This document shows, in pieces, positions 19,020 to 51,100 of a DNA stretch of 64,000 nucleotides (positions within the stretch are counted from its first letter, which is position 1; each line of letters begins with the position of its first letter). The notes under the pieces are model-generated. The model was not told where the DNA came from. It worked only from the letters and a program-made list of their open reading frames with translations, and made no database searches. This DNA is from Phoronis australis (Eukaryota; Animalia; Phoronida), in NCBI GenBank assembly GCA_002633005.1, contig NMRA01000005.1, positions 1,409,635 through 1,473,634 of the forward strand, written 5' to 3'. A program made the position numbers and the translations under genes.

Positions 19020-21672
19020 AGTGCTGAAAGTTGAACTCCGAAACAGCACAAGAGTATTCAACTGCCATTTGGCGATGAGTCCATTGAAAGATGATAATAT
19101 ATGCATTGTCTTGACCGTACGGAGAAAAGTAATTATTTGCGGACTATTTAAAAATCGATAAGATAGGAAATCAAGTCAACCTGTATATATGTTATGTTCA
19201 TGATATGTAATCAATATTCAAGCTTTAGTGAACATTCACACTTGTCAGTCTCTAATGGCGTTAGATATGGTGCATACGGAAAATCGCTTCAAAGAAAATT
19301 GCAATAAGTTACAACAAAATTAATTTCAGGCTAAAACTCACAGTTTTTAACACATTGACTTTTTACTTATCTGTCTGTCATTAATTGGGTCACATGACTA
19401 TTTTTTAGAAAATTTAGCAAATTAAAATGAAAGGCGCATTGATTGCAAAACAACGATATCAGCAACATAACCAAATTTCATTCGATACAAATCTTCAAGA
19501 TGAAATCTCAAAACGCTGTTACAGTTTTCTAAGTTAGCATTTCGTTTTCGTTTTACGCAACTCTTGATTTCTTTTCATGCAAACCACAACAGTCGTAATT
19601 GTTACAGCGTCTCGTGCAAAACGTGGAACATTTTAAAACCAATTCCTACCAGAGTTTTAGAGAACAGTGCATAAAGTATAAAGTTTCATATCCATCTGAT
19701 CACCCATTTCTGAGACCTGATGTTCTAATTTAGGGAAAATTTTGCCATGTAATTTGGAAATCAAACCCGAGGTCTTGACTATGTCAACAAAATAGTTGTT
19801 GAAGTTAAATGACCCCAAACTTCACGTTTTATAATCTCTGTGAAACAAAGATTGTAGATCCAAAGACATACGGGTCCACCTTATTTTTTATCCACAGCGC
19901 CAGGCACAATCGTGACTAAGAGCAAAAAATGCCGAGTCATTACATAGTATTGACATTCTATTGATTCGTGCTCATTCCAAACTAACTCGCGTAGGAGTGG
20001 AATGTTTGCAAGCTTGATAGTTTCGGAAATCAAACGTCGAGGCTTCTAATTTGTGACGATTCGATATACTTGTTACCCTATTTTTGCGGCATTTTGAATG
20101 TCAAAGACCATTAACCCATTTTGTAAGTAATGACCAGTTTGCGAATATATGTTCTGTGTTTGGGTTTTGTTTAAGACCCCAGAAGATACTGGGCCCACTG
20201 GTCTTCCATAGCCCCAGCCTCTATGAACAAGTAGAAGTCAGTTTTATGACCGCAAGTGACCTGTAAACCAAAAGTTACCTGATTGAATGGGATGCACGGA
20301 TAGCCAGCAACATTACATTTTGAAGGCCTTTTTGGTTGATTTGGCATATTTTGCTTATCATACAATATATTTTGAACCTTGCCAGTCGATTTCTTTAGCG
20401 TAAAAATGAGATAAACAAAAATCGCAATGTTCCTCAGACCGGAAGTGGTTACGGAAAGGAAGCGACAAGTTTCGAAAACAAGAACTGAGCCGAGTAAGCT
20501 GTGTTCCCTCGCTTTTCAGGCCAAATTTTCAACCATTGGAACTTTGACGACTTGATCAAAAACACTAAAAATTAACACAACAGAGATTCATCAGGCCAAA
20601 AACATGCAACGTTTGCATTTACCGCGTTACTTGATCAATACATCACACTTCCACTTTGAAGAATTGTTATGTTTTCTAAAAATCGACTGAGAAGATTCAA
20701 AGTATTTTGCATATTACGTAAAATATGTCGAATTTACCAAAAACGCTTTCCGTAGGTAAAATTCATAAAGCACTGGAACAATAAGTGTCAGAAACAAGAA
20801 AAATTGTTTACTTGTTTGAGGTTGGCTTTGGCACACTTTTAATGCTCACATCCAGGCTCTGGTGGTAAAAATGATCACGATGTTTTCAATTTTCTAAAGA
20901 AATAAAAAGGAGCTTTATGCGTGCTCTCACATGCTGAAAACTAAAGACTATGACACCCCTGTATTATTTAGTCTGCAAGACACTCAATTGGTTAGTATTA
21001 CACATGAAATGTTACATTTACTTTACAAAGTTTAAAAACATATTTAAACGCCTTCTGCTAAAAACCTACTTTCGAGTTAAGCCACTTGCTGCAATAAATT
21101 TGGCCTGAGAGTGAGATTAGAAATTGTTTCTAAGCTCGAAAAGAACTGACGGGTCGTTTCAGATCAGGATCATTAAGTTTCTAATGCTACGTCAGGTTGG
21201 TTTCAGTCACCAAAACAACATGGCTGTCAGGAGTTTTATTGTAACCAAATTCAGTTGTTCCAACATGGGATAAGAACGCGATTACGTTGAATTGAATGGA
21301 CAAACGCGCTGGCTGTGAAGAACGTTGATATTTACTGAACACCAGCACATGGTTACAGCGAGTTTAAGATTGAACGCTGTACTGGAATATTTGAAAACAA
21401 GTTCTATGAATGAAAAGTATATCTTAACCCGAAACCTTGAGCAGTCGAGCTCCACGTCTTTGGACATCAAGGGGGTCTGTTTTTTGTAAATGATAATATA
21501 CATATTTTTCAGGTATTTATTATCATTTATAAACAAGCACAAAAACAAATAAACAAATAAGTACATCCATTCATTCACGCATGCACACCTCAGGAGAGAC
21601 CGTTCTCGTATCTCGTATAAAGTAAACCACTGCTACATGGAGCTTTAACGTGAACAATAAAATTTTCTCATT

Positions 21673-22545
21673 TCACAGAGAAGCTGTCACATACAAAGTT
21701 TTATATGCAATTAATTTTTCAGCATTACTGTACTCATAAGTATATGTAACAAACTTGTGAAAATTAGGTATCTTTTTGTGACATCTCTCCTTGTAGACGT
21801 ACTGTTTGGCTAGTAAAAGCAAAATGTTAAATAGAAAATCGTGCACCTCATGAAGTCCAAGAATAACAGGTTCGTAAGAGAGACACTTGGGAAGCTGAAT
21901 GAGACACTTTAGAAGTAGCTTTCCGAATTCCTTCCAGAAATCCTGTACAAGGCAACATTCCCAAAAAAGGTGGGACAGCGTCTCTGGAGCTTTACCAAAA
22001 AAGGAACATAAATTAGAATCCTGAACACGGATTTTGTCTAAAAAGGTATTTGTTGCAATAATCCTGTGTAGTATTCTAAATTGGAACCATCTAATGTTGG
22101 GATCCTTTGTAATTTCATAAGGCAATGCGTATATTTCTTCCAATCTAAACTATCTCCTAACTCTATTTCCCATTTACACCCTGACTTAGAAGGTTTCTTA
22201 ACGTCATTAAAGACTGAACAAATATGTCTACAACTCTTCAAATCTTTCCGTGAGTAATTGCTAAAGGCATGCAAGGGGAGTAGACATTAACACTTTTAAA
22301 TTTACTTTGAAATAGACTTTTTTGAAACCTTCTTAGAACAGAAACAACACCATTATATTCTACAAAGTTGGTTTTTACATCGAATCCATTTTTCATAGGG
22401 TTCAAACTAACGAAATTACCATCAGAGGTATACATATCTCTAATAAATCGTAAGCCTTTTACAAACCAATGCTTATAAATAACACTTGTGCCTCCGATCG
22501 CCAAGTTACTATTAAACCACAAAGGTTGATTCAAAAAGTCCTCTT
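21673..22545 (-). mobile_element. 5'-truncated L1/Tx1-type LINE, ORF2 C-terminus (zf-RVT), frameshifted
   Basis: Overlapping ORF fragments QPLWFNSNL...WFVKGLRFIRD and FQFRILHRIIATNTFLDKI...LCSF...ETLSHLFWEC...QDFW...LLLLAKQYVY. Confidence 0.8.
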
Positions 22546-23751
22546 TAAAAAGGTAGTCCGTTTTTGGGGATGTTTACTTAACTTTGGTATTATCACGGTG
22601 TTCCATCGAAATTGGAACCCCGGTGTAAAACAGATATCCCGGAGTCGAAAACAGACTCCCGCACCTTCAAACCAGCTAACCAGTCCGAAAAACATGAACC
22701 CTGACCTGTAAAACAGGAACCCCGGGGATCGGACAGGATGAACCCTAAAATGCGGCCAATTGTAAAGATGTTTAAAGGAATTAAACAACAATGGCTTTTG
22801 CCTATGTCAATGAGAAGGAAAAGTACCCAGTCGCCGAGAAGTTGGATAGTATACGACCAACGCAAATCTACTACTTTAGTTCCCATTCCGATGGCTGCAC
22901 ATGGGACACTCAGATAAGAGATCAATAATGCTGGGACCTCGCTAGCCGGATCCCGCTAGAAAGGCAAGACTTCGCGTAATCACGCGAGATATTGCCTTGC
23001 ATTTTGAGTGAGAACCGTGTGATTTTTCTATCCGCAAGACAACTACTAAACTCTTGTGAGGCATCTGATTGGTTTGTAAGCCGGAAGTCGTCATCGAGCG
23101 AGAATCAATCAGATGCCTCATTAGCCTTTCACTTGCGTGAACTTGAAAATCTCAACCGGATACCTTTACTGCGGCACTCAAGCGTTGCAGCGAGTATCGT
23201 TCCTTGAGTATCCATTATGAGATACGCATGCATTACGTCAATAGATTCGCCAAAAGGTTAATGGCCTTTTACATTCAAAATGCCAACATGTCGAAACGTT
23301 TCAAATATATCAGCCGGGATGGTATGATTTGCGAGATATTTGGTTTATGCAAACATTTCAGCTCTTCGTTCGTTCGACCTTCAACACTAAATGTTCACTA
23401 GCAGAATAGTTACTGCTTATGTGTTGGACAGTAAGGCCGGAGTGTTTCTTTACGCGAGGACACTCGCTTTCTCCCGTCCCCTGAACCGCAGCGACACATT
23501 TCTCACTGAAAAATCATTTCGGGACTGACTAGACCTGGTCTCAGGGGCCAGGCGAGGCTATTCCGCTATCAACGACACTGTATCGAATAAATGAAAACTG
23601 TCCAATCTTTAAGGTAACTTGCGATATAATTTCACCTTGGTTAGCTGGCTAAAAACGAAAGTCTAATTAGGCTTTCTTCACTCATAAAACTTTCTACACA
23701 CAATATTCCTTACCGTGACTGGATTCTATTCCCCTCACCAATTCGTCACAG

Positions 23752-29277: not shown

Positions 29278-32200
29278 TCAGCCCAGAGTTTCATTGGCGA
29301 CTGTAGTTTTACTCTCGAATTCACACGTCCCACTTGAAAACCCAAATTGCATCAACACCAAGAAATATGTTAGGCAAATTCCATAAACCTGGAAAAACAA
29401 AACGATGGTTACCTTTTATTGAACCCCGTACTTTAGACTTATTAAAGAAACACGTGGGAGCATCAAAATTCAAATATGACCGGGCAATAATTGTAACCAA
29501 GTCACAATTTGAAAACTTGGAACCTCGAAGCTACTATGTAAGGTTTCCTAAATATTCATTTTGACTTCCAATATGAATACAATGTAAGAATAAACATTTT
29601 CCAATTGACAAAATTCGAGCCTAACAGATAACAACTGAATACCGGCTCCGAAGCCATAAAACAAAGCTTTCGGTCAATGTTTATTTTAATTGAAGTCGCA
29701 AAGGGTTTCTTTTTAAAAAATCACGTTAAATATTTTTGTAACGTGGGGAAAAGTTGGCTGAAGTGAAATTACCGTTAGCAACAGAGGTTTGTCAACCACA
29801 AAATAATCCCACGCGGAGACGCCACCTGACGGCACCGAAAGCTTATTCAGAAACAGCTGTAACTCCGCAAGTTGTGATGACGTCATCTCAGTGAATGATT
29901 CCATGTCGTGGAGTATCGACAATACTTCTTGGGCCTAGAATGTAAAACCCAAATGCGTAAATATCCAGCTTCAGGCAGTTTTAAACGGTTTAGCTTCCCA
30001 ATGAGCAGAAGTGTTTCATGAGCAGGTGAGTCCCATGAACACACAAATGTGTTTATTTAAAGCTTTCTTCCTAATGACAATATATTGAAAACAAATTGTT
30101 CTTTGGCCAGGTGTATTAGCTCCGATAGTTGCATATGATCAGGTTGCCATCATACACATTTCAATGTACTGCATATGCATATGAATTCTAAAAGTTTAAA
30201 GTGTTTTATTGAGCTATTTAAGTACAGGAACCTATACAAATATCTACTAGGACAATGACATCACAGAAGGCACGTGAGAATCCATTTCGTTTTGTACGTG
30301 TTTGTTAAAGGCGAAGGCAACCTTTTTTCGTGTCACTTTTAGCAAAAATAAGGTTCGTTGATTATCCCAGACACATTTTTTCACTTAATTACAGCTTTTC
30401 GTAATTTGATTTATTTATCGTCCTCTACTCCGGAAGTGATGTTTTGGGAGGCAAGAGTTTCGCGCCAATTTCTTTTCATTATAGTCTGACTGTGAGAGCT
30501 GTCGAGTCAGTCATTGTTCTACCTCGGTTGTGATAAGGTTGGTCGTCGTTTGCTTTTGTTTACAAGTCAGTTAACATGCCACGTTGTTGCTGCGTGCTGG
30601 GATGTACTCATTATCGTCTCACACGCGCTTTGGGTACCTTGCGTCGCTTTCCGAAGGATGACACACTTCGCCGTACTTGGCAAGTCGTTCATGTGAAGAA
30701 CGCAGCGCTAACCGTCCACGCAAATGAATGAAGGGTTACCGAGTGTGTGGCAAGCATTTTCTGCCGTCAGATTATGACAGATATGTACGCTGAATTGACG
30801 AAGGTCCCTGCGAAACAACGCCTGAAGAAGGGTACCATACCGTCGCTGTTGATTCCCGGCAGTGCCCCGTCGCCAACCCCGAGAAGTGCGTTTTTGAAGC
30901 GATTAGCCTCACGAGCTGTGGCCACTATATACAGTGACTGGAGGCACTTCATCTACTGTCACCCGTACCTCCGAACGTACCCCATTGCGTGCAATTCCAG
31001 GAACTAGCAGTGATGGGCCCTGTTACGTGCTGTTGTCTCTAGCCCAGAGCCTGTAAGCAGCCCTGCAGCGATGTTGAGAAGTGGGAGTGAATACAGGCCC
31101 AGTTGGACACCCAATGAAGAGGACAGTTCGTCATCCAATGTACAGATCGGTGAGCCAAAGTTTGATAAGTTTATTGTGGACTTGTATTGGAGCTCTTTGG
31201 AAGGAGCCAAGTGTGTGGCGAGGGAGTCACACGGCGGGATGTAAGCAGTTTGGGTGCTCAGATCACCCTCCAGTGGGAGTGTGTCGTGGGATACTCGGGC
31301 AAGTGGAGCAGTTCTTCCTCCAATAGTGAGACGATAATGAGTGCACCCCAGTACGCAGCAACAGCGTGGCATGTTGACTGACCCGTAAGCAAAAGCAAAC
31401 GACGACCGAACTTATCACAACCGAGGTAGAACAATGACTGACTCTACAGCTCTTACAGTCAGACTAAAATGAAAAGAAATTGGCGCGAAATTCTTGCCTC
31501 CCAAAACGTCACTTCCGGAGTAGACGACGAGTAATTAATTAAATTACGAAAAGCCGTAAATAAGTGAAAATATGTCTGGGATAATCAACGAACCTTATTT
31601 TTGCTAAAAATGACATGAAAAAAGGTTGCCTTCGCCTTTAAAATGTGTAGAAAGTATAAAATGGTGTTTGAATCTCTAATGTAAAAACTATACTCCTTTG
31701 TGCTACGCTCATCAGAATAATTTTGTATAATTTAATGAAACAACTTTGTTAGGCGCAGTTTACCTTTGCATTAGCGGACGCTCCGACTAGGATTACTACA
31801 GAAGTAATGAGTAGGCCACCAATTATCCAGTACATGTACGTTGCAAAGAAGAGATCGTTCGCTCTTGCGCAAGCGAAAGTGGCGAGAAGATAGATCATGC
31901 TGATGATAAGAGCGGTGTTCATCACCAGATTTACTGCGATGTATGGAGAGAAAATAACACCGAGTTCGTCTATCAGTTTGCAAACGTGGCCGTGTAGTTT
32001 TCTGTAGTAACAGATATTTGGATAAAATGTGCTATCCTCGACCACCCTTCTCAGTTCAGAAATGAACTCGTCCATACACATGTTGGTCAAAGAAACCATA
32101 AGGATATACAAAAAGGTTGGTGCAAGCCATGCAGCACTGTTGTAGGAGTTTGGAATTATGAAAATTATCTTGAATGCCTTTAGCCCCGGGTCACCGTGTT

Positions 32201-32744
32201 TCAACGGAGCAAAAAGAAGATCATGGTGCGGCGTCGCAATCTGCACAGTACTGTTAAATGCTACGTTCAAAACACTAAAAGCGACGAACACTGCCGTTAC
32301 GACGTAACATTTTCTTTGCATCCGCACTAGTGAGACTTTCCCTATGTTCCAACAGCTGACCAACTTCCTGACAGAATCGAAAAACCGCGGGAGCTTAGAC
32401 CACTGATGAAAAATGAGGAAATGGAGGATCGCGTGACAAGCACAGAGGAAAAGCCATATTAAGCTGGTGGCCGCGCTGAAAAAGACGTATTCCATTCTTG
32501 GTATTTGTGTCAGAATCCACACTTGTCTAACACATAAGGAAACTGGTACGGCGCATACCAAGAGCTGATAGAAAGAGCTTGGTCGCCATATTATGGAGAA
32601 TCGTCGTCTTCCCTCGTTTTCGAAATGGACATTCCTCTCTAAAGTGTCTGATTGAGCCAATCCGAACAACTTAAGCGTGACCAGATAAGGTTGAAACACT
32701 TTTTGAACCAGAACCTCTTGACTGCCTGTTGCAGACATGTCCAT
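29278..32744 (-). CDS. Gustatory receptor-like (7tm_7 chemoreceptor family) protein, copy B, about 417 aa, 3 exons
   Basis: Exons 32744-31764, 29934-29773 and 29388-29278. Exons 2 and 3 have the same sizes (162 and 111 nt) and phases as in copy A. The C-terminus is VYGICLTYFLVLMQFGFSSGTCEF. The sequence aligns with copy A throughout (e.g. YNSAAWxAPTFLYILMVSLTNMCMDEFISEL). Confidence 0.88.
30309..31637 (+). mobile_element. Kolobok-like THAP transposon derivative with about 310-bp TIRs, in intron 1 of GRL copy B
   Basis: TTAA TSDs at 30305-30308 and 31638-31641; termini AGGCGAAGGCAACC and GGTTGCCTTCGCCT. The broken THAP ORF from 30576 reads MPRCCCVLGC...RRFPKD...W... then, across frameshifts, YRVCGKHFLPSDY and QRLKKGTIPSL. 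Confidence 0.8.
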
Positions 32745-34073
32745 CTTGTTGAAAAGTTAACTTCGAGAAAACTAGTTGTAGATTAGTTAACTACCGTTTA
32801 GCGCCCGATCAACTGAAAAATAACGATATAATGCAAGATCTTGATCGTACTGGTGAAAAATAACTATTTGCTCACCTTTAAAAAATCAATGAGGTATAAG
32901 ATCAAGTAGCTGTCCATATGAATACGTTTTACCGCATATAAACCCCACTTGAAACTATAATGGGTTTACACTATTGTTCTTCATAACGTAACCGTTAGCG
33001 CATCTATGCGTAATTAAACCCGACACCAAAAAACTAATATGGTATACCGCGCGTGGCCATATTTTTAGTGCAAAATGGCATCGCAGTCAATACTTGAAGA
33101 AGAGAATTTAAAAATGGGGTAAACCCGTATTATCTGACATTTTATTTATCGCGTATTATTTTCAAAAGTGGCCATGGGATAAAATCGTGTAGGGTTGTAC
33201 TGAAATCTATGACCTGAAGATCTTTTCCTACGTGGTGCGTTGGTCCTTCTGAGATTGAACGGATGAATGCCACGTGTTTAAGCGTAGTCATTTGGACCAA
33301 AACTGCCAACTGCTTACTCTGTTATTAACCTGCCGGTGTTTTTTAGTACGCGCGTATTTGCGCATATGCGAAGTCACACCATCGATGTTCTGTGTTTGAC
33401 CAGAGTGCATTTTCGTCATATTACATCTTTCTTTGAGCAGAGAAACTAGGATTTCAACCTAGTCTCAAAGACAATGAGATTGGATGTTTATTTGAAAACG
33501 TGATAAAGACAAAGAAAGTCTTGTAAACCACCCTGTTATAAATACCGGTGCAAAGATTCCAATAATATTCAGTGTTGGAAGTTCAATTTATGAACCGAGT
33601 TCCGTGGTCATAATTTAAGTTATGTTTGGCATTAAGTCACTACCTCCCAAAATGACACCTCAGTTTAAATTGATACACATTTTTATATATCTATTTCAAG
33701 TTATATTTTTGGAAAAAAATCCGTCTTACCTAAGAATTGAGTGAATTTCCTTTATTGCGCAACACTTTCCAAATTCGCCGTGGGGTGGAATAGTACAGGG
33801 ATGAGGTATAGTTTCTTAAATAGTACTTAATTCTTTTTTTCAAATCAGCGACTTCCTTTTTTATTTTTGTCCCTGAAGTCATAGAGTTTGAAACAACAAA
33901 TTGCTGTGCCAAGTGGTAAGGGGGGTTGAAATCTATTTTAGAGATCTCTCGTCGCAAGCGGCTCGCTGTTCTCATGCGTTATGCTGGCAATTGGTCCGTG
34001 ATTTTCACACACTAGTTGAGGGTCGTGCTATGCACGATATTACAGAAGCAATCGTCTGATTTCAGTAATATGG

Positions 34074-37000
34074 ATGCTAGTCGCCATTGTCGACACCGCT
34101 TATTTGGAGAGAATGAGGCGGACTGAAACAAAAACTGGTTTGGACGATCAATCTTCTCTTGAAAGATACTTGGGCTTGGGTGAGACAGAATGGCTAGAAG
34201 CAGTCTCTGAGTTTAAAACAGTCAACGGAACAAAGGTTTGTTTTCAACTAAATTCTCCTTAGCTTCTATACCTCTCGTTTTCTTATCCATCGCTATCTCT
34301 TTCTTCCTCATCGTCATCATCTTCTTATCTTTATTCTTCTTATTCGTCCTCCTCCTCATATTCTTTTTCGTTTTTCCTTCTTCCCTTTCGGAAATATTCC
34401 ACCACTTTCAATGTTTTTCTTGATGTTTTTAAATTAGCAACATTTAAATTAAGATACAACCTGTCTTAGTTACCGATGTATTTGTCTGACACTTGTAAAC
34501 GCAGATCGAGCTGACTATTCTTTAACTTTGGCTGCCATCGCTTAAAAGCCAAGGGGTCACCGTAAAATTTCCGTCCTGACTTCAGGATTTAAAAAAATCT
34601 TTATAATTCGACTGGTTAGCGATCCTAATTAAATATAATGCAGTCGATGAGGCGTAGCTGACTGATTGTCTTTTAAGGTTTTGTAGAACTCTTGAAAATG
34701 TTAAAATTCAGAGGGAACTTTCAGGTATTATGCTTTATGAAACGTTCTATTAAACACTGCTAGGAATTGTTTTTAAAATGTTCTATTTTTCTATGAGGAA
34801 CTATCAAAAATAGGACGCACATAATTTTTGTGAAAAAATAACTTTAAAGTTGCATAAATCTACATGTCTAGAGTGCATTCAACCAAATTTCTACGAAATA
34901 AAGATTTCAACTCAACAAAAGTACATATTTACCGAGATCAGAAAGCATCAGAATTTGATTTTTTAAATTTATTCCAATCTGTCTTTGACTGGGTAACATG
35001 ATCATGCCGTTTTAATAAAATTCAATAAAAAGGCACAATCGTAGCAAAACAACGGTATTAATAACATGACCAAATTTCCTTTGATATAAAAGTGTTAAAA
35101 ATGAATATCTTACAGGTTTCTAAGTTATCATTTCGTTTTCTTTTCTATGTAACGTTTCAATATTTTCATAAAAACGATAAAAGTCCCATTTTCGATTGAC
35201 CCTCATGCAAAAAGGACCAATTTCAAATCACGTGTGGGAGAACAGTGTATACGGAATAGCACCTGAAATTTTCATGTGAATCCGGACTGTTACTTCTGAA
35301 ATTTGATGCTCCCAATTTTTAACATAACGTTAACGTCAGCGGTAGAAATGCTTGGAGGTGACATCGTTCATCCATCTGTGTAAGCTTCAACGAATGACAA
35401 ATCTGTGTCATATTTCAAAATTTACGGCAAAATTCAGCACCTACAAATTTGTTGTGTTAAAATGTCACGTGATTCCGGTATCGAACTTACTTTAAAATTA
35501 AGGATTTTTACCTAAATATACTAATAGAAATCTTTTATACAGGTCAAGTTCAGACACGTGTACAGAGGCATCAAAGTTTATGGCGCGTCAGTTGTCGCCG
35601 GTAAACTATATGGAAAATCGTACAACGGATGGGCGTACGGCAATCTAGCGAGAAAAATCCACGAAAATCTCAATTTGTCTGGTAAAGTAACCAGCGATAG
35701 TGCTTTGAACGAAACTGAATACTTTCATATAACTAACCTCCGAGGACGGATTTTTATTTGAATAATTAACTTACGGTTTCTGGAAGTACAGAATTTGCTT
35801 AGTAACTTTCAATACGAATAGGCTCTACTCGCTTGATGACAACAAGACGTTCAATGTTACATTTCACCCTGTTCAATTCGCTATAAAACGAAAGTCGAAT
35901 TCGGCCATTTATTCAAATAAAGCAGTCTCATATTTCATGCCGGTTTACCAACAAAACTTCGAAACGATCAGCGACTCGAGAAAACGCTTCAGAGTTTATT
36001 GAGGTTGGACACGTGAACCCCTAAATTTGCGAATTCGAAAATGACGCACGAACGAATTGCCCGTGACTTGAGTTGGTAACGAAACTGGAATCCCATCGCA
36101 GTAAGGAATATTATGAGACCGATTTTTATGAGTGTATAAGGCCTAATTTGATGTTCGTGTTTAACTAGCTATACAAGACAAACGCGGCTTTTACAAGTCT
36201 ATCTGATAACACCGATATACAGCGTAGCCTGCATATTGTGCGGATAGCTGGTATTTACGTAAAATATCGCCAACATTTCAATACCTTTCAGTTAACATCA
36301 TTTCTAAAATCTATTGGTCCATTTAAACCAACCACGAGCAGACTGCATCCCAGCTGGCTGAGTTCAATGATGGCAGCCGCCTGCTCGAAGCCGGTATTAT
36401 TTATGGCCATGCTGCGAAGAGTCACAAGAAGGGCCGTGCCCGAGTGCTGTCTAATCAAATGCTTACAGGCAACGTCAGCCCTGGAGTTCTGCGCCTTCTG
36501 CTGTCACGGGGATGGTCTGGGGAGGGGATTAATGCACCAGCATATCCCCAATGATCCTGTCCGTGACAGGTATTACAGGTATTACAGGTATTACCAACCT
36601 CTATCCAATTTCCATTGGCACGACATTTCGGTCGGCCATTCTCCGGCCATCTTCAGGTGTTAAAGTGTTCTTAAAAGAACGAGCACTGTACACTCATAAT
36701 GGTCAATGATGAGCAGTTTTTACTATTTTTTTCTCGTCTGAAACAGGGTTTGAACCGGGCACCTTGAGTTTGTCAATCCAGTACTTTTTAAAACCACTGC
36801 ACCATCGAGTTATGTACTGGTTAGAATTCCTGGCTAACAATCTAAGGATCCCAGGTTCAAACTCAGCTTGAGCAAAGAGAACAATTTAAAAGTGCTCATT
36901 ATTGACGACCATGAGTTTACCATACACCTGCGCTCGTTCTTCTAAGAACACTGTAACACCTAGAAATAACATGAGAAATGACCTACCGAACAATCATCCT

Positions 37001-40000
37001 GATATAAATAAACTAGAGTTTGGTGTAAATAGACCAATAAATTTTAGAAATGATTTTACATAGCTAGCTCAAAGCGATTTTAGGAAGGCTTTTCAGTTAA
37101 ATTATTTCCACCATATGTATCTGAAACAGAGTACGATGCCATGGATTGGCAATTCAGCGAGAAAGGCTCAGAAGAGTCTATGACGGCGTGCTTCATACAC
37201 AACTCGCATAACGTTAGCCCCTACGATAACTACAGAAGAAATGAAAAGGCAGAATTATTCATATACGTCGGTACGTATGAAGCTATGTTGTATTTCAATG
37301 CACTACCACTATTATATTTTCATGGGTTTTTGTATAAACCATAACCTATGAATTGTGTACCTCGTTAGGCCTTTATCCCCGACTGACGTACCGAAAGACA
37401 ATGTACCAAAAATTGTCCAGTATATCCCAAGAAATTTTTGTCTTGATGTATTGTTCGCTCTTAGTCGCCAGCAACTTTAAGACCGTCCCCAACCGTGATT
37501 AGTTTCGCACCCATATCCTCAATGAGATCATTTAGGTTTTACTGCCGTGGCCCATTCACAGCCCTCCATCCCACCTCTCGTCAGTGTATCGCCAAGGAAT
37601 TATTTGTTCATTGAATACGTTTAGTTTTTCCAAACAATTATTTAAATCAACAATTTACTAATCCCGTCTGTGTAATTATTTTCCCCAAAAGGCAAACCCA
37701 GTGAGCCATCTGAGGTCAGTGCGCGCCTGATGTATCTTGTGTCGTACTTAGTGGAGATGACGACACCATCTGGCGAGTACGTGTCACGACCGATGTGTAA
37801 AGTGGACGCCAAAACGCAGGGGGTCTTGCAATCGTGGGAAGGCTTGGCTACGGCTGCCATTAGAACCTCCCGAGAAGCCGTCGACGTACATACCGCTGCT
37901 GGTGGAAACCCAAAGGTAACCTTCAGATCACCGGCACCAGTGGGAATGAGGCTTTAAGTCAGCAGACCGATGAAGTCCTTCCACGACTTCACGGTCAAAA
38001 GATGTCTATGACATCTCACTACTCTTCCTGTAATGAACAGTAAAATAACATGAAATTGTCTTCAATTGCGATCACTCCGAGTGATTTCGTGGCTAAAAGG
38101 GCAATTTTCGAAGGGAAGATGTTCGCGTAACCTCTAAAAACGGCATGCTGGCGGCGTTTTGTTCTTGGTAGAGTCCGGAGATGGCTATCGTCCTAAATTC
38201 GCCTAGTATAAGATGTGCCCTGGAGTGCATGCCAATTATTTGGTGAAACATTCCCCGACTATGTCTCTTATCTTAGTCTTATAACACACCCGTGCATCAC
38301 AGCCCAAGGGTGAGAGTGAACTGCGCCCTATTGGTTATACTCATTAGCTAACATGTAATACGGTATATTGTTAGCAACGTGCTCCTCTTGTTGTAGGCTG
38401 GTGTGCACAAATTTGATGGGATACTGCTACCAAAGCTTTCGGCTATTACGACAGTAGAGGGCGCTAACTGCAAATATTCAAGCACAAAGGTAATAAGTAT
38501 AAACATGAAAGAAGGAGTTGAAAACGGCGAGGTTTATTCAGCCAAATGTTCAGACGAGTCTACCAGCAAGAAAATCAACGGAAACCCTGGCGTGTTCAAC
38601 GACGCTCAATATTATGGTGGTGTCGCTGTTGATGCACTGACGGACATTTTCGGAAAGAATCCTTTCAGAGGCCCAGTGAAGCTCCGTGTGCACTACGGCA
38701 AGCGCTACGAGAATGCATTCTGGGACGGAGAAACAGCCACTTTTGGGGATGGTGGAAACAGATTATACCCATTGGTTGGCCTTAATGTCATAGGACATGA
38801 ACTTACGCATGGCTTGACGGAGAAGCACTCTGGATTAGAGAGTCATGGTCAATCGGGCGCCATAAGTGAAGCAATTTCCGACATGGCTGGTGAAGCAATT
38901 GAATACTACCACCACAAGGAGAACGATTTCCTCGTTGGAAGCGAAGTGTACAAGCAACGTGGCGCTGCAGTGCGGTACATGTGCCAACCGGAAAGAGATG
39001 GAAAATCTATCAGCCACGCCAATGACTACTATCCAACCATGCATCTCCACAAAGCAAGTGGAGTGCTCAACAAAGCTTTCTGTTTGTTGGCGAAGAGCAC
39101 TGGTTTCTCAGCGAAGTTGGCGTTTCGCATTTTTGCTCAAGCTAACCAAAACTATTTCGGACCAATGACAACGTTCGGTGATTGCGCGTGCGGTGTAGAA
39201 AACGCGGCAGCTGATGAAGGCGTAGACCTTACTGTCGTAAAACATGCACTCCAAAGCGTAGGTCTGTGCTGCGGGTGTACAGGTGTCAACGGCTTGCCTA
39301 ATAGTGGAAACGACGTATCTCAACACATGCATTTTGATTACCCTACGTCAGCCAACATCGACGCAAACTCACAAGAATCGGACCAAAACGGAGCAAGCAA
39401 ATCACTATTCGTTGACAGGGATCAAACTCCATACGGATCACAGCACAAAAAGGAGTCATTCGACCCATCACCAGTGAACACTAAACCCGATCCCTCGGGA
39501 TCAGACAAAAATGAACCAGTAAAGCCATCGCCAATAAACACTACCCCGGATCCGTCACGATCTCATAAAAAAGAACAATGGGTTAAGCCACATCCGCCAG
39601 GATCAGATCAGAATCCAGAACCTGTCAACCCTACGTCAGTCAACACTAACCCTAATGCCTCAGAATCAGACAAAAATGTACCGGTCAAGCCACTACCAGG
39701 AAACACTAACACATATCCACCAGGATCAGATAAAAAAGAACAATGGGTTAAGCCACATCTGTCAGGATCAGATCAGAATCCAGAACCTGTCAACCCTACG
39801 TCAGTCAACACTAACCCTAATCCCTCAGACTCAGACAAAAATATACCGGTCAAGCCACTACCAGGAAACACTAACACATATCCGCCAGGATCAGATAAAA
39901 AAGAACAGTGGGTTAAGCCACATCTGTCAGGATCAGATCAGAATCCAGACCATGTCAACCCTCAGACAGTCAACACTAGCCCTTATCCAACAGGATCAGA

Positions 40001-40988
40001 CCAAAATGTACCGGTCAAGCTACCACCGGGGAACACTAACACATATCCGTCAGGCTCAGATAAAAAAGAACAGTGGGTCAAGCTATATTCCTCGGGTTCA
40101 GAAAAGAATCCAGAACCTGTCAATCCTCCATCACTCAACACTAACCCTTATCCAGCAGGATCAGGTCAGAATGTATCAGTTAAACCACCGCCGGAGAACA
40201 CTAACCCATATCGGCCAGGATCAGTTCAATATGAACAATGGGTTAGGCCATATCCCTCAGGATCAGATCAAAATCCGGATCCTGCTTCTTCTCCGCTAGT
40301 GAACACGCCTAATCCTTCAGGATCAGACAGAAATGTACCGGTCAAGCCAATGTCGGTAAACACTAGCCCATATCCGCCAGTATCAGATAAAAAAGAACAA
40401 CGGGTTAAGCCATATCCTTCAGGATCAGATCAGAACCCAGAACCTGTCAATCCTCTGCCAGTAAACACTAAACCTCATCCCTCAGGGTCAGACCAAAGTG
40501 AGACGAACAAGCCACTGCCAGTACACACTAAACCATATCCTTCAGGAGCAGATCAAAATCCGGAACCTGCTTATCCTCCGCCGGTGAACACTAACCCATA
40601 TCCGTCAGAATCAGATCAAAATGAGCAATGGGGTGAGTCGACTTCTGGGTTATTCGACTTTCGTGCACCGCATCCTAACCAAGCTGGCCAATCAGCTGCA
40701 GACTCTGAGACGCCAACTGGTAAAAGTGAAAATGGCAGAAGTAATACCAATCAGTCACCGAGTGACAAATCTAAACCAACTGTTCCAGACTCGTTTAAAG
40801 CCGGAGATTTATTCTCAGTGGACGGGGGACAAACAGACAATGCAGCTGCTCAGTCTAGAGACTTGATGTCTTTTGCTTCAGGAGTCTTTAACCAGGTCAA
40901 ATTTCCATCGTCGAATGATGGCAAAAGGACGCCAAGTGGAAATGGAAAATCGAACGACACTGGCAAAGTTGCGTCCAATTCTGACTAA
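34074..40988 (+). CDS. Thermolysin/pseudolysin-family (peptidase M4) zinc metalloprotease precursor with a C-terminal Pro-rich repeat tail, 5 exons, about 1085 aa (start uncertain)
   Basis: Exons 34074-34235, 35543-35681, 37130-37270, 37692-37915 and 38397-40988 splice in frame (3258 nt). Domains: FTP propeptide (VKFRHVYRGIKVYGASVV); PepSY-like segment (ARLMYLVSYLV...SRPMCKVDAKTQGVLQSWEGLA...GGNPK); catalytic domain with YENAFWDG, FGDG, HELTH, GAISEAISD and HKASGVLN. Confidence 0.88.
36298..37055. mobile_element. Foldback/MITE-like inverted repeat in intron 2 of the M4 protease gene
   Basis: The arms CATTTCTAAAATCTATTGGTCCATTTA and TAAATAGACCAATAAATTTTAGAAATG are inverted, as are GGTGTTAAAGTGTTCTTAAAAGAACGAGC and GCTCGTTCTTCTAAGAACACTGTAACACC. 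B-box-like GGTTCAAAC occurs in both arms. Confidence 0.6.
39460..40640 (+). repeat. Coding tandem repeat, 165-bp (55-aa) period, about 6-7 units
   Basis: The EQW(V) anchor codons fall at 39573, 39738, 39903, 40068, 40233 and (as EQR) 40395. Unit: KEQWVKPHLSGSDQNPEPVNPTSVNTNPNPSDSDKNVPVKPLPGNTNTYPPGSDK. Confidence 0.92.
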
Positions 40989-43429
40989 GTTTACCATAGC
41001 CCAAAACATCCGCAGGCTTACATCTTGCTGCAGGGCGTAATTTGGGAAGTGTCGGAGTGTGACGCCCCCAATAATTTAAAAATGTTTTCCAAATTTGAAA
41101 ATTTTCCGAGAAATGAGTTCATGTTTAGTTGTAAATTGATTCTACTCCCAATTGTGAACTCAATCCTTAGTAAGTCACGATCGCTCATTTTGTAGTCATT
41201 TCCCCCACAACTGCATTTTGTTCACGTGAAGTTCTATTCTGCGTAAACGTCAGAGATTTATAACCGCTTCACTTAAAAAGGTGAACTGCACGGCACTAGT
41301 TCACGATTATTACCGTCAGAGTGTTTCAGTCTCGTGCGGCAATGATCAAAAGCACTTACCGGAAAGTTCAAATCAACCTGTTTTAGCAGTTATATACTGA
41401 ATGTACACGAAACAGGATTCTTTGCAAAGAAGACGTTTTTATTGGACCTAATACAATTTTAAAATCAAAGCACGTTTGAAATCAATGAATAAGAGTTGCA
41501 ATTTATTTTTTGTGAGCTCAATTAAACTCGCTGTCCTAGAGCTATTGAGTAAGTCGCTGGTACTGAGTTTGCGGATAGATGGCGCAACGCAAGCAAGACC
41601 CAGCCACTTCATCAATAGAAAAGACCGTAGAAAATCGATTGCACCTTTGCTGTAATGTTCATGAGCGTGGTAATAAAAAATGAATTTTTGCCACTGAGGA
41701 ACAGAATGACATCCACACGGCCGGCATGTAGACCATGGCAGTGATACCGCACGTTGGAATGTAATCAACGAAACGTAAATTTTTCTCCCATTCAATATCC
41801 AAATGTCGTCATAGATGCCACCAGTTTGCCAAACTTTTAACACTCGAAGAAAAGCTTCCAGGCAAACGAAAAAGCAACAAGGAACACGATTTGAGAAAAA
41901 CCCCGGAGCTTCAGCAGCTCTGAATATCCACGAATGTGAAATAATTGAGAACATTGATTAGCTTAGAAATATTAGTGTCTCTCACCGGCCGCTTAAGGAT
42001 GAGCAATCACAGACTAAACGACTTCAGTGTTTTAAGTCGCAAGGTAAAACACTTGCCACACCATGGCAAATGTTCTGAAACCATAATCGATCTTTGAAGT
42101 AGAAGACATCGGAAATAACGTCCAATGACTTCGGAAATTTATTCGTTGAACTTCGTTAAGGTGTCACGTTGTGAGTTAGTTACGGTTATGTAGTTGAAAT
42201 GACATTTTTTTGAAAAGGATACCAACCACGGTTTTGGCCTATTACCAGATTTTAAAAACAACTTTCCCATCTGTTTAAAACAAAATAGTGCTCCATAACC
42301 CTCTACAATCTTCAAAATTTTGAGGAAGATTTGAGAACTTTCCCATTCTGCTAAGCAGGCAAGCGTGACCCGTCTACGCGTTTAGCGAATCACACGGTAA
42401 CTGTGGGGAAAGACCACATAGCAAGAACTATAATATCCAATTTGTGACATAGGAAGTACGAATTTTTAGTTGATTTCTGCTTTTATCTTTCAACATTGAC
42501 GCCAGTGATGCATTAGCAGGTGACAGAATGAGGACTGACTGAAATCATCAAAGCAGGGTAAAATTGTAATACAAGTTCTGATGGCCTAATAGTAGCTTTA
42601 AGGTACTCGATCACTCGCGTTATTTAGATGTCGTTGGAAATCTTCTAAATGAAATAATGCCAAAGTTATTGCCGGGTATGACAAAAATGCTATCACGAAA
42701 TTTCACATTTATTCAATGCGTACTATAACTGATCGGTGCGCTTGTGTGTTTAAACTTGCGTGGTTGCACTCGCTCCTCGTGGCATTCAATTTGTTTTACC
42801 AGACACGACAAAATGAGCGATTTGACACCCCAGACCGCCCACACAAAGCAAAATTATTAATTTCGTCCCTGTTGCGGAATCGCAGCACCTCGCGCAGGTT
42901 CTGACAAAGTGAAATAAGCTAGAACTAATGTAACAGACAAGTCCACGACTTACTGTTTGTTTCTGACGTTTACGTACTTTTAGGAGAGACCATGCGGATT
43001 TAGAAGGGTAACCATTTTGAGCAAAATTTTGATAGGTTGTCCCTTACGGTATTTTAGATCCATCAGGGTTGGAAGACCTAAAACTCTGATGAAACAAGTA
43101 AGAATTTCCACGCGAAGATGAGGTTTATGTGAATATCATAAGATGGCGTATGTAATAACCTTCGGATGGCGTTGAATTCATTAACGCCATCACCCCCAAT
43201 TTCCGAGGCTGATTATTCGGTAAGGGGCACACTTAATAAGAGGCATCGCTTGTTGTCCTCACATTTAATAAAAATAAAAATTTCCTTTGAAATACACCGT
43301 GTCTGGATGGGTAAAGCTGGAACCAAAGCATACGCGACAATGGTGACAGCATATAAGGTGATGCTGTAAAATCAGCTTTGATTGCAACCACACCGATCAA
43401 ATAACTTATCACGTTCTCATTGCACAAGA

Positions 43430-45179: not shown

Positions 45180-48100
45180 TTACTTCGTCGGAGGTTGCCA
45201 ACTGTGTATTTTGGGCCGTGTTGTACTATACGGGACCCACTGTTGTGGGGTACCGGACATGTTCTCTGTGTGGTCTTCCATCCACTTGTACTTGACAGGG
45301 GGTACTTTAGTGGGGGGGTCATCTGTTATGTAGTGAAGCCAGCGATGCCTGTCGCAAAAAGAGATGAGGTGTCAGAAAAAACAACATAACAATCACAATT
45401 GTTTTCTCTACGGAATGAATATCTATAAATGAAAAATCACCAGACAAAATTCTGTTCCACTGTCATAATCGTCCTTCAACGTACAGTGCAAGCAACCAGC
45501 AATGCCTCTTCATTTCGAAAAAATCCTAATTATAGAACAGGATTTGCACCTTGCTAACTTTCTGATAAATTCTTGGATGTTTCTGCTTGTCGCGGAGGAC
45601 TACTGAGCAAGAGGATAAACTTTCCATCACTCATCTGCCAATTCGTCTGATTACTTTGACCTACTACGAGTCATCCAGCGCAAAACAAGATGAATTGTAA
45701 TCAATCCCTTGCAAGGTAAATCGTTGAACAATGAACCCACAGGAGTTCCAAATTAAGCTTTCTCAATTAGATAAACTACCAACCAAACGCAATTCGAGAG
45801 AGTGATTACTTGTTGCTGCTTATTTGGAAAGGCAGGATCATAGTGGGGTGTATTCTGAGAGCAAAGGCGGTCAGTGATGCAGACAGGCATACATGTGTCA
45901 CAGACTTGGATGATCTCATGGACACATGGTCTGAACCTCCTTCTCTTTAGCTCTCCTTTCCACCCATCAGGAGAGTCCGGGAAGAAGTACCGAATGCCAC
46001 CACCACCACTCAAGACACTGTCAGACAAATACTGACATAACCTACCTAGCTATTTCCATTTTCTTTTCACAAACTTTTAGTTTAATAGTATTATGTCACC
46101 TTTGTTTGTTAAAATGTTGTGCATAATTCCAAGTAGTGGTAGCATTTTCACATAACACTGTTCAAATAATGTTTACATGACATAGCAACAAATCATTTAT
46201 GATTCATAGTAGTCTTTCAGGTCCCCGGATATCTGTCTTGGTTTACATCACAACGAAGATGAGGCTATTTACTCCTTTCTGCTGATGGATAACTTTGGTC
46301 AAGGGGACTTTGAAGTGCTGGAATGTTGTTTATAGGTACTCCACTGACTTATGATAGTCAGTGAAAGGGTTTGGCCTCCTTCCTTGAGGACGTCACAACT
46401 CTGTGTAAGGTAATCCATTGACTTGGTCAGTGAAAGGGTTTGGCCTCCTTTCTTGAGGACGTCACAAGTCTGTGTAAGGTACTCCACTGACTTGGTCAGC
46501 TGACGTACGGTAGTCCTTGAAAGGGTTTGGCCACACTTCCTTGAAGATGCCACGAGTTTGTGTAAGGAACTCCACTGACTGTCTGTTTACTTGAAGGTAC
46601 TCCAATGTCACTTATCAGTGAAAGGGTTTGGCCCCCTTCCTTGAGGATGCCTTTAGAACTTTACTTATCTGTCCTTCATAAAATCCTTTTTGTGTTCATA
46701 TCACTTAAGACAACTATAGGATTATAAATATTGCAGTTGTTGTTTATATAGCATGAACATTCCTGGATGGCTCAAGACAGGTTCTTCATTTTATTACATT
46801 GTTGTGGAGAGTTTGTGTAGAAGTTTTATTGATTATATGTCTTTCAGAAGCTTGTATTAAAATGTTTCATTTATCATTCCTGTCATCAATACATTTTTGA
46901 AATGATATTTGTTTATCTTTAATTTTTATTTGATGTAGGCTAATTGATTTTGACACAGTTAAGTAGGTCGCAAACTGCATGTTAACAAAAATCACATAAT
47001 AACATCAATAATTTGCTAAGTCAATTATCAAGTTTTAACTTTTCTGATGAAAAATCTTTAAAATGACACCTTATTTGTTTTTTTTCCAGAAGTAATTGTT
47101 ATTTTATGCCAATTTGAAATTGCAAAATTGTACGTGGTGACTTTCCTTTGTCAGCTATGTAGACTTTAAGGTCAACATCTTTGCAAAGGAAGTCCAAATC
47201 GAAATGGTTTTTTGGCAAATTATTCATCATAAAATGTTCCTTAAAATGATGTATCACATGTCTATGATCTACATTACTTAGTTTTGAAACCATAATATTT
47301 CAAACTCGCAAATTCGATTTGACAGAATTTTTACAAAACATTTTGACACGAAAATGACATTTTCTCCGTAACCGTAAGTCCAATCTAAAAAGTGTTGCTA
47401 CGGCTCTCTTAGTCTTGAGGAGAGCTTTCTAATGATTGATATTACATGCACATTTTCAAAAATTTTTGAAAAATGCTGTTCTCCCTACCTTTATCACTGT
47501 CAGACAGTCTTATTCCGTAACATAGAAGCAAGACTTAGTGGACGAGGAAATGGGTAGTGCACAGTCAGTCGCATCAGTTGGACGGAGAATCTGCCCATTA
47601 TACAGTATTATAATCAGACTAATAAAGATTAATTATTAATTAATTAACTGATCGGATGAGAAGACGTCTCAGGACTCTCAGGTCAGGAGCCACCTGACAC
47701 AAAGATCCCAGACCTGCAAGTTCAAGACACTCACCGTTCACGGCCTTTTGTCCCTCTGAAATCACAGATATTCATGGCCCTTAAAGGAGAATGCCACCCG
47801 ATTTAATTAGTCTTTTTTATCGTCTTAATCGGTCTATATCCATATCACCTCTTATACGGTTGACCTCAACTTGCCGAGAGGTGTCGCGTTAACCTGTGAG
47901 GAGGGGGAGAAACGACGCAGAGACGTCACCGGTTTGTCTGCAGAGTGAATGCCGCTATATTGCTGTGCACCGTTCCCGCTTGTCCGAATTATGAAGCTGC
48001 GAAGAAAGCGAGCATATTGTTTTTTCGACTTCCTTGAGAGCCCAAAATGCTTAGGAAGTGGCTCGCGGTAGTGTTGAATGAAAGGTAGGCTGATAACAGC

Positions 48101-51100
48101 AAGTATGAGGCCGTGAAACATCTCCGTGTCTGTGGTTGGTATTTCGTCGACAGTGATTTCTGTGACAAATTCCGGCTTACCAAAGAACTATCCATACGTT
48201 ACGTTGCCTGTGAACATTTTGCTATAGAAATCACAAGCTTGTGACAACCACATCAGTGGAAATTACCTCCAACACTGATACCTGTTTGGAACGCTATTAC
48301 ACCAGTAAAGTATATGGTTTTGATTCAAAATATTTTTGATTAATATTTAGTTTAGTTTCATGAAGTAGGGCGTACTTGTTTAACTTATTTTTTGATTTTC
48401 ACTAAAATTCCATGTTTTTTGTGAACCCATTGTTCAACAATAGATATCACTTTAGAGGTGACAAAATGGCAATCCTGACTTGCAGTGTTCATTGTTTTTT
48501 TTTCATATTAACATTTTACTTCTAAATACATTAAGGTATACAACAATGAGATATATGTAAATGAAACACCCACACACACATATCTAAATAATAGAACTTC
48601 ACGGTTGGTCTAATCTAAATAAGTATTGAGGGTTTCCCAAAAGGCAGTTTTATGGGGAGTTTTTAATTAGCTGTAATTGATGTAAAAAACTCATGTTTCA
48701 TGCGCATGCGACAAATGCCATTTCTCACATGGAACATTGCATTCTCACATGACATTTGAATGTTCCAGGTGAGATTTGTTCAGTTGTGCCATGTTACAAT
48801 AGAAATGGCACATGGCACAAACACTATATTTGTGACATGGGTTTTTCATAGCAAAATGATATAATGAATTTTAGGAGAAAGTTTTGCATTTAGTTAATTA
48901 AAAATATTGTTTTACAAAATGGTTGAATGTTTAAAACACTAAAGTGTGATGCCTAATTATCAATAGATAATGTTTAGACCACTTTGGTCACTGATAACCA
49001 AATTATCAACAAATCAGAATTAAATTGTCAACAGAATTATATCACATTTTTTGCCTTATTTTCGTAATGACGTTTGACTTGCGCTAATTAATTTGCAATA
49101 ATATTGTTTCTTTTCAGGACTTGCATAAAATTGGTGACATCAAAACATTTTGATCATAGATTCTAAACTACTTCAGGCAAAATTGTGAAATTATAAAGAT
49201 AAAATTATGTAAAACAGATGAGTGTAATTGGAATATTCTGCAGCTTTAGTAACAGGCCCCCCTCTCATGATATATTGCACCAATTACATTGGTCTGTTTC
49301 AAATAATTCTTCATTTTCAAAAAGTCACATGTGAGGAATTTAATGAAACATTCCATGGCACTTTTGATTTTAGAACATTACACACCATTTAACCCCTTCG
49401 AGATCAGTGGTGGCCCAGGCAAAGAAATCATCTGAATCTTGAATGATGGCCTATTCCTGCTTCATGGCATTATCTGCCAGTCGTTTTGACGATCCTCCCA
49501 GTCCGACGCATGGACCCTTGCCATGCCCTGCCTCGAAATAATGCCAGACAACGTATACAGCATGAAATCTTGTCACCAAGTCGAAGATTGTTTTGTTCCT
49601 GTACTGGGACGTTGGCGAGTCCGTCCAAAAGTGAACTGCTTCTAGTCGTCCCACGAGTTGCTTCACAAACGCCATGATCTTGTTGATGACGGTAAGGACA
49701 ATTGGTGCATTGTGTTGAAGAACCTCCGAGACAATGATGATACTCTTATGACTTAGCTTATCATCCTTACTTCTGCAGAAAATTACTGTGGGATGTAGAG
49801 TCACAGCTGTTACATTCCAGTAAGATGACTGTATTTCTTCATATTTTGAGAGCAATAATTTTCCACGAAATCCATCTGGATTAGCACGTGACTTGGTGGT
49901 AATCTTTCTTTCATTTCCTTCAGTGCTTTGTACTGGGTGATAACTTTTCTCATGTGGTCAGCAAACAAGCTTTGGGACTCCTTCATGAGTTTGGCAAACT
50001 CAGTGCTAGGCAATTCTTCTTCTGAGATACGGATCTTTCCTTTCTGTCTGTCAGTTTCACTCTTCTCCACTCTCGGTACTTCACGTTAGTTGTGGTTTGA
50101 TTCCGTCTAGGTTGCTATCACTGTGTGTTTCAAGGAATTTGTCTGGGCTTGTGCATTTGGTGACTTTTAAGTCTTTCTAATATCTCAGTTTAAGTGCAAA
50201 ATTCTGATGCTTGGTGCACAACCAAACTGATCTCGATGAGAAGTTTACCAGGGTAATATGCGATGGTCTTGCATGGCAGAACGTTGCCAAGGAGATCCGG
50301 TATGTGGACTCGGAAAGAAATTTATGGTGTAAGTTATGCATGTAACCGTTTAGTACTCGCTTCTGAATCTTTGTTTTCTCAACTTTGACTGCGTCGGCTT
50401 TATCAAGCAACATTCTTGACATATTTTTCTTTATTTTAAAGGTCTTTTGACGTTGTTCCACGACTTCGAAAAAATCTCTGTGGTGAGCTGAACATTGGCT
50501 TCACCATTTGTCACGATTCATTGAGAATGAATGAAAGGTTTGCTATTTGTTGATATTGTTATAAGTGTGTCTTCCAAAGGTTCAGGTGGTCAGTGCAGTG
50601 GTTATAATCTGAGAGACTTAGCAGTTTTAAGACGTGTTCTGATAACAAGTTGTCCACTGAAGACAGGAAAAGACCTTATTGTTTCTTGTATTTTGGACCG
50701 GGATTACTTTAACTATATATCAACATCTTTGAGTTACATTTTCTAAATCTTTCATGGCAGCAAACATGTATCGTGATGAGCGGTTGGTTTTATATTTGAC
50801 AAAGAGTTGTTCATTAACCAGTCAAATAATTCATTTCAGGTTTTCATCATTTACACCTCTCAATTTAGCGCTCAGCTGACTTGAGTCTGATTTTGTTCAT
50901 AATGTGTTATAATTTGACGTCCACCATTTGGTTTTCTCCCTTTACTTGTAATGTTTCATTATTTTCACCCAGTCATTGTATTTTGAACCATGCATTCACT
51001 GAAACAAAATGAAATCCAGTCATATTTTACAGGGGACCAAAGGTCTGAAACCCAACATTACGGCAAATTCGGAAAGTCTCCACATGAGGGAGCAAAAAGC

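Follow-up and report, generated by a model that had tools for sequence, protein, structure and literature searches.

How does a peptidase of family M4 come to be encoded, split by spliceosomal introns, in the genome of an animal? According to an excerpt of PMC7851659, bacteria are almost the only known source of M4. The question is raised by a stretch of 64,000 nucleotides (nt) of Phoronis australis (contig NMRA01000005.1 of assembly GCA_002633005.1, positions 1,409,635-1,473,634, forward strand), hereafter the window, in which an earlier note made from the letters alone had described an M4 gene of five GT-AG exons splicing in frame into a protein of 1085 amino acids (aa). Both the coordinates and the stop-free joined frame were reproduced (Table 1), and we are virtually certain that this is a real gene. 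Judged by motif, domain score and predicted fold, its product is a member of M4 built like vibriolysin. As a whole, we slightly favor the reading that the locus encodes a secreted, slower or retuned M4 protease, derived from an old proteobacterial transfer and held by its tail in mucus or matrix.

The gene model was assessed exon by exon. Exon 5 yields Pfam matches above cut-off for Peptidase_M4 (E 2.9e-22, 80.1 bits) and M4_C (E 3.7e-28, 98.9 bits), and the alignment of the 1085-aa protein with bacterial precursors runs end to end across all four junctions. Run across exons 1-4, our own profile of 250 bacterial pre-pro regions reaches 94 bits, which points to a long FTP plus PepSY propeptide as in the vibriolysin/elastase branch. 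When 2207 six-frame fragments of the window were ranked with this profile, exons 4, 5, 2, and 3 took ranks 1-4 and exon 1 rank 6, in colinear order; exons 1-4 each outscore all of their 200 shuffled versions. The earlier note had claimed a full FTP propeptide, a PepSY-like segment and the M4 domain. The catalytic domain and, by our profile, the propeptide hold, whereas the Pfam FTP match of exon 2 is sub-threshold (16.9 bits against a cut-off of 21) and a Pfam scan of exon 4 alone returns no PepSY match. An alternative junction 2 shifted by 3 nt (35686/37132) is nearly equal in score (94.1 versus 94.6 bits). Among metagenome relatives, the corresponding region is one uninterrupted open frame in 73 of 75 testable loci (79 loci, four being too short). 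The introns are biased toward the 5' end, with none of the four lying beyond codon 222 of the 516 ancestral ones (p ~0.03). They do precede the catalytic exon, as had been noted, but intron 4 follows the GGN motif and lies about ten residues inside what is the mature enzyme in bacteria, because in a bacterial relative the mature form starts a few residues ahead of GGN (PMC3327674, in part).

Table 1. Features of the M4 locus and its neighbors, in window coordinates.
Feature	Position	Strand	Basis
Gustatory-receptor-like exon, 1.3 kb upstream of the M4 gene	31749..32756	-	64% identical to 7tm_7-like open reading frame 18033-19175
Open in-frame extension ahead of ATG 34074	34020..34073	+	Basic-then-hydrophobic, signal-peptide-like with following residues
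Coding exon 1 as modeled: end of signal region and propeptide start	34074..34235	+	Donor backed by 6 RNA reads; 5' boundary not fixed
Intron 1, GT-AG, phase 0, 1307 nt	34236..35542	+	6 spliced reads from 5 starts, run X5
Exon 2, FTP propeptide motif	35543..35681	+	Pfam FTP below cut-off; own profile E 1.6e-5
Intron 2, GT-AG, phase 1, 1448 nt	35682..37129	+	Homology; exact junction without read support
Exon 3, propeptide	37130..37270	+	Beats 200/200 shuffles; omission costs 18 bits
Intron 3, GT-AG, phase 1, 421 nt	37271..37691	+	Homology; without read support
Exon 4, PepSY-like propeptide end, pro/mature linker, GGN motif	37692..37915	+	Own profile E 8e-13; alignment; no Pfam match alone
RTSR, minimal furin-type R-X-X-R in pro/mature linker	37862..37873	+	Motif noticed; use conjectural
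Intron 4, GT-AG, phase 0, 481 nt	37916..38396	+	3 spliced reads from 3 starts, run X5
Exon 5 (38397-40988), M4 catalytic domain, vibriolysin/elastase branch	38397..39290	+	Pfam; PDB sequence search; predicted structure with pLDDT 92.3, TM-score 0.89 and root-mean-square deviation (rmsd) 1.3 to MCP-02
HELTH zinc motif (H356, E357, H360), ligand E380, S371 (38841), S379 (38865)	38796..38870	+	Comparison with 293 relatives
R415 and H440 kept, H438 substitution, Cys418/Cys451	38973..39083	+	Comparison with 293 relatives
Pro/Ser/Asn-rich tail, 565 aa, then stop	39291..40988	+	Transcribed
Probable 3' untranslated region (UTR), ~2.3 kb	40989..43278	+	Sense depth in X5 and X6; end placed from signals
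NDUFA12 last exon, convergent with the M4 gene	45183..45371	-	Pfam E 2.8e-13; PDB search; another exon at ~53600

Transcription was examined in raw-read RNA runs carrying the same species label and stemming from a study other than that of the DNA; three runs were mapped over window positions 31000-43000, with 18-19% of each run read (about 18% for X5) and joints listed from three reads upward. In X5, spliced reads cross junctions 34235/35543 and 37915/38397, and those of introns 2 and 3 (35681/37130 and 37270/37692) are not among the joints listed at that threshold and fraction, a listing that leaves out three joints. Half of the four-junction check proposed in the earlier note was thereby borne out, and the total lack of spliced reads that it had named as a danger to the model did not occur. 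Depth over exon 5 is at most 7x in X5 and X6, exclusively in the orientation of a plus-strand transcript, which amounts to sense transcription in two of the three runs. The adjacent receptor gene, a silent control, has zero depth, and the signal over the M4 gene is therefore not DNA carry-over.

These spliced reads bear directly on the suspicion of bacterial contamination or a chimeric scaffold. That all named relatives are bacterial and that the four DNA records come from one sample would suit such an artifact. Yet spliceosomal introns are removed in RNA of an independent study, animal genes occupy the same gap-free stretch, and no bacterial match exceeds 50% at full length. No N occurs between 27744 and 58959, a span that takes in the M4 gene together with the receptor exon and the two exons recovered for NDUFA12, and the GC content at third codon positions (GC3) of the M4 catalytic part is 0.48, against 0.47 and 0.51 for two receptor open reading frames (ORFs). 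The chimera feared in the earlier note did not show itself in this gap-free, host-gene-bearing and spliced stretch, as far as assembly gaps, flanking genes and splicing tell. Because of the spliced reads we consider contamination effectively refuted and next to inconceivable.

Where, then, did the gene come from? Relatives were taken from three lists, comprising the best 120 of 765, the best 120 of 327, and the best 150 of 8992 matches. Organism names accompany 73 of the 240 matches listed from two word-seeded searches, and all 73 are bacteria, including Aeromonas, Lysobacter/Marilutibacter, Dyella, Gallaecimonas, and Chromobacterium; the exhaustive protein search gave 8992 representatives, the best 150 of which carry no organism names. 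Full-length identity is at most 50% among the matches listed. Thirty clusters, chosen as most divergent or most query-like, were looked up, six naming an organism, in each case a bacterium. Eighty loci in prokaryote genomes, nearly all of Pseudomonadota, are 44-49% identical to the animal protein, metagenome loci reach 48%, and querying the Atlas with the catalytic domain yielded nothing beyond generic M4 clusters. The resemblance to elastase and vibriolysin precursors pointed out in the earlier note is in line with PDB scores of 200-243 bits for the elastase/vibriolysin/ProA branch, compared with 100-117 bits for thermolysin/bacillolysin and 81 bits for protealysin. The horizontal acquisition, domestication and intron gain proposed in the earlier note fit with a gene that is spliced and transcribed, has animal flanks and counts only bacteria among its named relatives. 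On these comparisons the gene is very probably of bacterial origin, likely by transfer from a proteobacterium long ago.

Two oddities were met among the relatives. P0121 (1483 aa; cluster member P0269, 1730 aa) holds a full and a partial M4 stretch, and behind each of them come repeats that by eye resemble FG-GAP/integrin propeller units. P0414, P0415, and P0421, of a Vibrio campbellii M4 cluster, bear the NCBI label homocysteine methyltransferase, an apparent misannotation.

Phylogenetic placement was attempted with FastTree on 294 sequences, 97 of the 390 listed matches having been dropped (shorter than 250 aa or more than 90% redundant), and with IQ-TREE on 49 of those, with no outgroup and no second eukaryote. 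The animal sequence forms a long branch, with a median identity of 44% to relatives that are themselves 57% alike. FastTree puts Dyella mobilis and one unnamed long branch beside it, and in IQ-TREE its partners are two different long branches, likewise unnamed; naming a donor from either placement was rejected as probable long-branch attraction. As the tree neighbors change between runs, the donor can be placed, from the sequences, no finer than the vibriolysin/elastase branch of Pseudomonadota. A tree of vertical inheritance, which the earlier note had said would speak against transfer, did not emerge, a result of limited reach in a tree that holds no other eukaryotic M4.

The long branch, at least four introns and the host-like GC3 indicate great age, and they would suit an old, widespread clade of invertebrate M4 genes, founded by one ancient transfer or by vertical descent with many losses; it would be compatible with the mechanism proposed below, and we hold it to be a real possibility, if not a probable one. 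Automatic M4 annotations of the type "elastase-like" or "hemagglutinin/proteinase-like" appear to exist in molluscs, brachiopods, amphioxus, and corals. Against such a clade, no named animal protein appears among the 390 listed matches or the 30 cluster look-ups, and no report of an animal M4 protease was found in the literature searched (titles and abstract openings); the main text of PMC13390645 mentions no peptidase, protease, thermolysin or elastase. Vertical descent via the fungal M4s was considered and rejected: these are assigned to the protealysin group (PMC6778150, seen as an excerpt), another subgroup, so that they give no vertical link, and the animal protein matches that group far more weakly (81 versus 243 bits).

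Is the product still an enzyme? The model fitting MCP-02, a vibriolysin, leans on the alignment of bacterial relatives, a single-sequence prediction reaching a pLDDT of 38.9. The HEXXH motif and the Glu 20 residues further on are intact, with H356, E357, H360, and E380 each invariant in 293/293 relatives; R415 (293/293) and H440 (291/293) are kept, as are D384, N328, and W331. Of the two usual Cys pairs, C247 and C273 are found in 272 and 278, and C487 and C514 in 215 and 204, of the 293 relatives. An extra pair, Cys418 with Cys451, is complete in 42 of the 293, including Dyella, Thermomonas, Oleiagrimonas, and Porticoccus, and neither Cys is ever seen singly; in the trees these 42 are not gathered into a single clade. 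Three substitutions stand out: S371 replaces a Tyr found in 292/293 relatives, S379 an Asn found in 290/293, and H438 an Asp (254/293) or Asn (33/293; together 287/293). The catalytic helpers Tyr157 and Asp226, typical of active members but no criterion for assignment to the family, are hence absent, with S371 and H438 in their stead, and the counterparts of His231 and Arg203 are present in H440 and R415, which we take to be the equivalents in thermolysin numbering. In M4 enzymes, the role of the Tyr is to stabilize the transition state and that of the Asp to orient the catalytic His (excerpts of PMC7851659 and PMC7021514).

A pseudo-protease, in which zinc and fold are retained by a protein that binds and does not cut, for example in matrix or mucus or as a decoy, while a more canonical paralog performs proteolysis, would explain the exchange of Tyr and Asn for Ser and of Asp for His, the replacement of Gly-Pro before GGN by Ala-Ala, the altered linker, and the fact that a second M4-like transcript (see below) keeps a conserved Met that is Ala in this gene. 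It is nevertheless unlikely in our view, with the zinc ligands, catalytic Glu, H440, R415, D384, N328, and W331 all maintained along a long branch; pseudo-proteases commonly lack the catalytic Glu or a zinc ligand. From its residues, the animal protein is probably still proteolytic.

The N-terminus of the model is probably incomplete. From 34020 onward the reading frame stays open; its basic residues give way to a hydrophobic run (hydropathy peak 3.1) that continues through the modeled Met, and bacterial signal peptides align to the segment at and upstream of ATG 34074. Four AG acceptors would preserve the frame. An upstream exon is hinted at by some two sense reads of X5 at 33005-33405, followed by an empty bin. 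Translation probably starts upstream of ATG 34074, in the signal-peptide-like stretch, and the animal protein is, judging by this segment, quite probably secreted. The 1085-aa protein of the earlier note accordingly stands as an intact frame, its true N-terminus probably missing. Two out-of-frame ATGs (34030 and 34070) precede the modeled one; alternatively, the start problem could come from an assembly error of one base near ATG 34030. The propeptide start, right behind the signal-like segment, holds RMRR (34110-34121), a full furin-type consensus, R-X-X-R being the minimal motif.

Those upstream ATGs, a first coding exon not found in 32760-34000, many changed conserved columns, a weak third-position excess in the tail repeats and low expression would suit a decaying or non-secreted duplicate whose signal peptide has been severed from its start codon and whose sequence is drifting. 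Such decay is highly improbable given 1085 codons free of stops and frameshifts, a tail that stayed open, an intact catalytic core, a spliced transcript and the reads hinting at an upstream exon.

The pro/mature linker measures 18 aa, compared with 8-9 aa in 281 of the 315 relatives with a parsable linker, and contains RTSR; an R-X-X-R motif was found in the linker of 0 of these 315. Furin-type activation of the precursor, which this motif would permit, is rather unlikely.

Downstream of the catalytic domain, the tail contains a 165-nt (55-aa) unit repeated 6.6 times at 39472-40558 and then a unique end; domain searches gave no family match for it. Its open frame was retained in only 5 of 2000 neutral simulations, and its repeat copies show a weak third-position excess only. 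The animal protein carries ten N-glycosylation sequons, none of them in the catalytic domain. Sense depth in X5 and X6 reaches 43000, the limit of the mapped stretch, near AATAAA at 43267 and 43273, which suggests the 3' UTR given in Table 1. At 40609, an A>G difference is present in 9/9 X5 reads and 2/2 X6 reads; it is probably an allele, editing being the alternative.

A second M4 gene is hinted at by the RNA. A contig of run X8 matches the locus over only 30 nt (38706-38735), flanked by other M4-like letters (LLFRVHYGQG before, MTFGDGQSRF after), and additional sense reads in X5 and X6 also match this segment only, diverging thereafter into M4-like sequence. Depth in the corresponding bin of X6 is 6.85 versus 0.23 and 0.24 in the adjoining bins. 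The stretch common to both transcripts ends in DGET, which 0 of the 278 relatives with the corresponding motif show. The second M4-like transcript, which keeps the conserved Met, is likely a more canonical paralog of the host, a microbial source being the alternative.

The favored reading, a secreted and tethered M4 protease, would operate as follows. A signal peptide starting upstream of the modeled ATG would send the precursor through the endoplasmic reticulum, and the FTP/PepSY-like propeptide would fold and inhibit the enzyme, as in bacteria. Release might follow cleavage of the lengthened linker, which a host furin-type convertase acting at RTSR may carry out in place of the enzyme itself. 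Zinc on H356, H360, and E380, with E357 as the base, H440, and R415 would still hydrolyze peptide bonds, and the absence of the transition-state Tyr and the His-orienting Asp may lower turnover or shift specificity. The tail, probably disordered and glycosylated, might substitute for the PPC substrate-binding domains of bacterial enzymes and retain the protease in mucus or matrix. Bacterial PPC domains bind substrate, as described in part of PMC3327674.

Several observations weigh against this reading. A scan of 32760-34000 with a crude donor model found no first coding exon; RTSR was spotted post hoc, with a rough chance estimate of a few percent in 18 residues; and expression is low overall, with zero depth over the gene in run X7. 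The placement in the trees varies between runs beside long branches, unrooted and with a single eukaryote, and weaker animal relatives could be missed because only the best matches of each list were covered. Moreover, the protein deviates at 20 of 95 highly conserved columns, a count that none of the 293 relatives reaches (next, 16), a pattern that, as far as such columns tell, would also fit a pseudo-enzyme or relaxed selection.

The flanks of the gene are of animal type. The earlier note had named TRABD, NDUFA12, and gustatory-receptor-like genes as flanks; NDUFA12 and two 7tm_7-like receptor ORFs were recovered, and TRABD fell to a single weak match (E 0.04). In the PDB search, the NDUFA12 exon scores 61-68 bits, 52-53 bits, and at most 33 bits with three groups of chains, which are presumably mammalian, fly, and fungal and plant, respectively. 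The receptor-like exons at 18033-19175 and 31749-32756 (both on the minus strand) are alike over 332 aa, a local duplication; for the latter, three runs gave no RNA depth, a homolog search was empty and the Atlas gave generic 7tm_7 clusters. Between the two receptor genes lies a broken end of a retrotransposon of the long interspersed nuclear element type (21673-22573, minus strand; zf-RVT E 6.4e-7). ORF fragments resembling transposon remains were noticed on the minus strand at 49451-50500 (no Pfam match), 15085-15321 (weak THAP match, E 0.0074), and 31004-31411 (by eye, a THAP-like Cys start). Repeat elements at 31000-31641, 35110-35200, 36213-36660, and 42228-42628 attract many partial RNA reads on both strands and some opposite-strand joints; introns 1 and 2 of the M4 gene harbor two of these elements, and its probable 3' UTR another.

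Compared with known systems, the protein is closest to the vibriolysin/pseudolysin branch, with MCP-02 (3nqx), PlM4P (7ecc), Pseudomonas elastase LasB, and the M4s of Aeromonas, Dyella, and Marilutibacter. With these it shares the signal-propeptide-catalytic layout (the signal being predicted), GGN, NAFWDG, HEXXH plus Glu, both usual Cys pairs, identities of 41-50% and TM-scores of 0.84-0.89, in addition to the extra Cys pair known from some relatives. Unlike them, it is encoded with four spliceosomal introns, has substituted Tyr, Asn, and Asp and a longer linker with RTSR, and bears its 565-aa repeat tail where many relatives carry PPC or PKD domains. Thermolysin/bacillolysin and protealysin-like enzymes share family, fold and zinc site, at weaker scores (77-117 bits). 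Protealysin-like M4s have a short propeptide, whereas that of the animal protein, which falls outside this group, is long.

Intron-bearing bacterial genes in animals are already known as a phenomenon, among them nematode and insect cell-wall enzymes. Tunicate cellulose synthase is another such transferred gene with introns (PMC13390645, excerpt). The M4 gene resembles these transfers in combining a bacterial protein with host introns biased to the 5' end, host-like composition and host expression, and differs in its cargo, a virulence-type secreted protease. A yet undescribed animal family of vibriolysin type, arisen by lineage-specific transfer and duplication, with the present copy having acquired furin control, a retuned site and a mucin-like tether, is doubtful.

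M4 proteases are regarded as bacterial almost throughout and as drug targets that animals lack, and a spliced, expressed animal M4 adds a protease class to the repertoire of an animal, a significance that falls if M4 genes are already common in invertebrate annotations. The gene offers a natural variant without the Tyr that nearly all relatives keep, and a natural experiment in refitting a bacterial secreted enzyme to the eukaryotic secretory path by introns, activation site and tether. Should the lineage-specific, rewired transfer prove true, a bacterial virulence-type protease would have been turned into a regulated secretory enzyme of its host.

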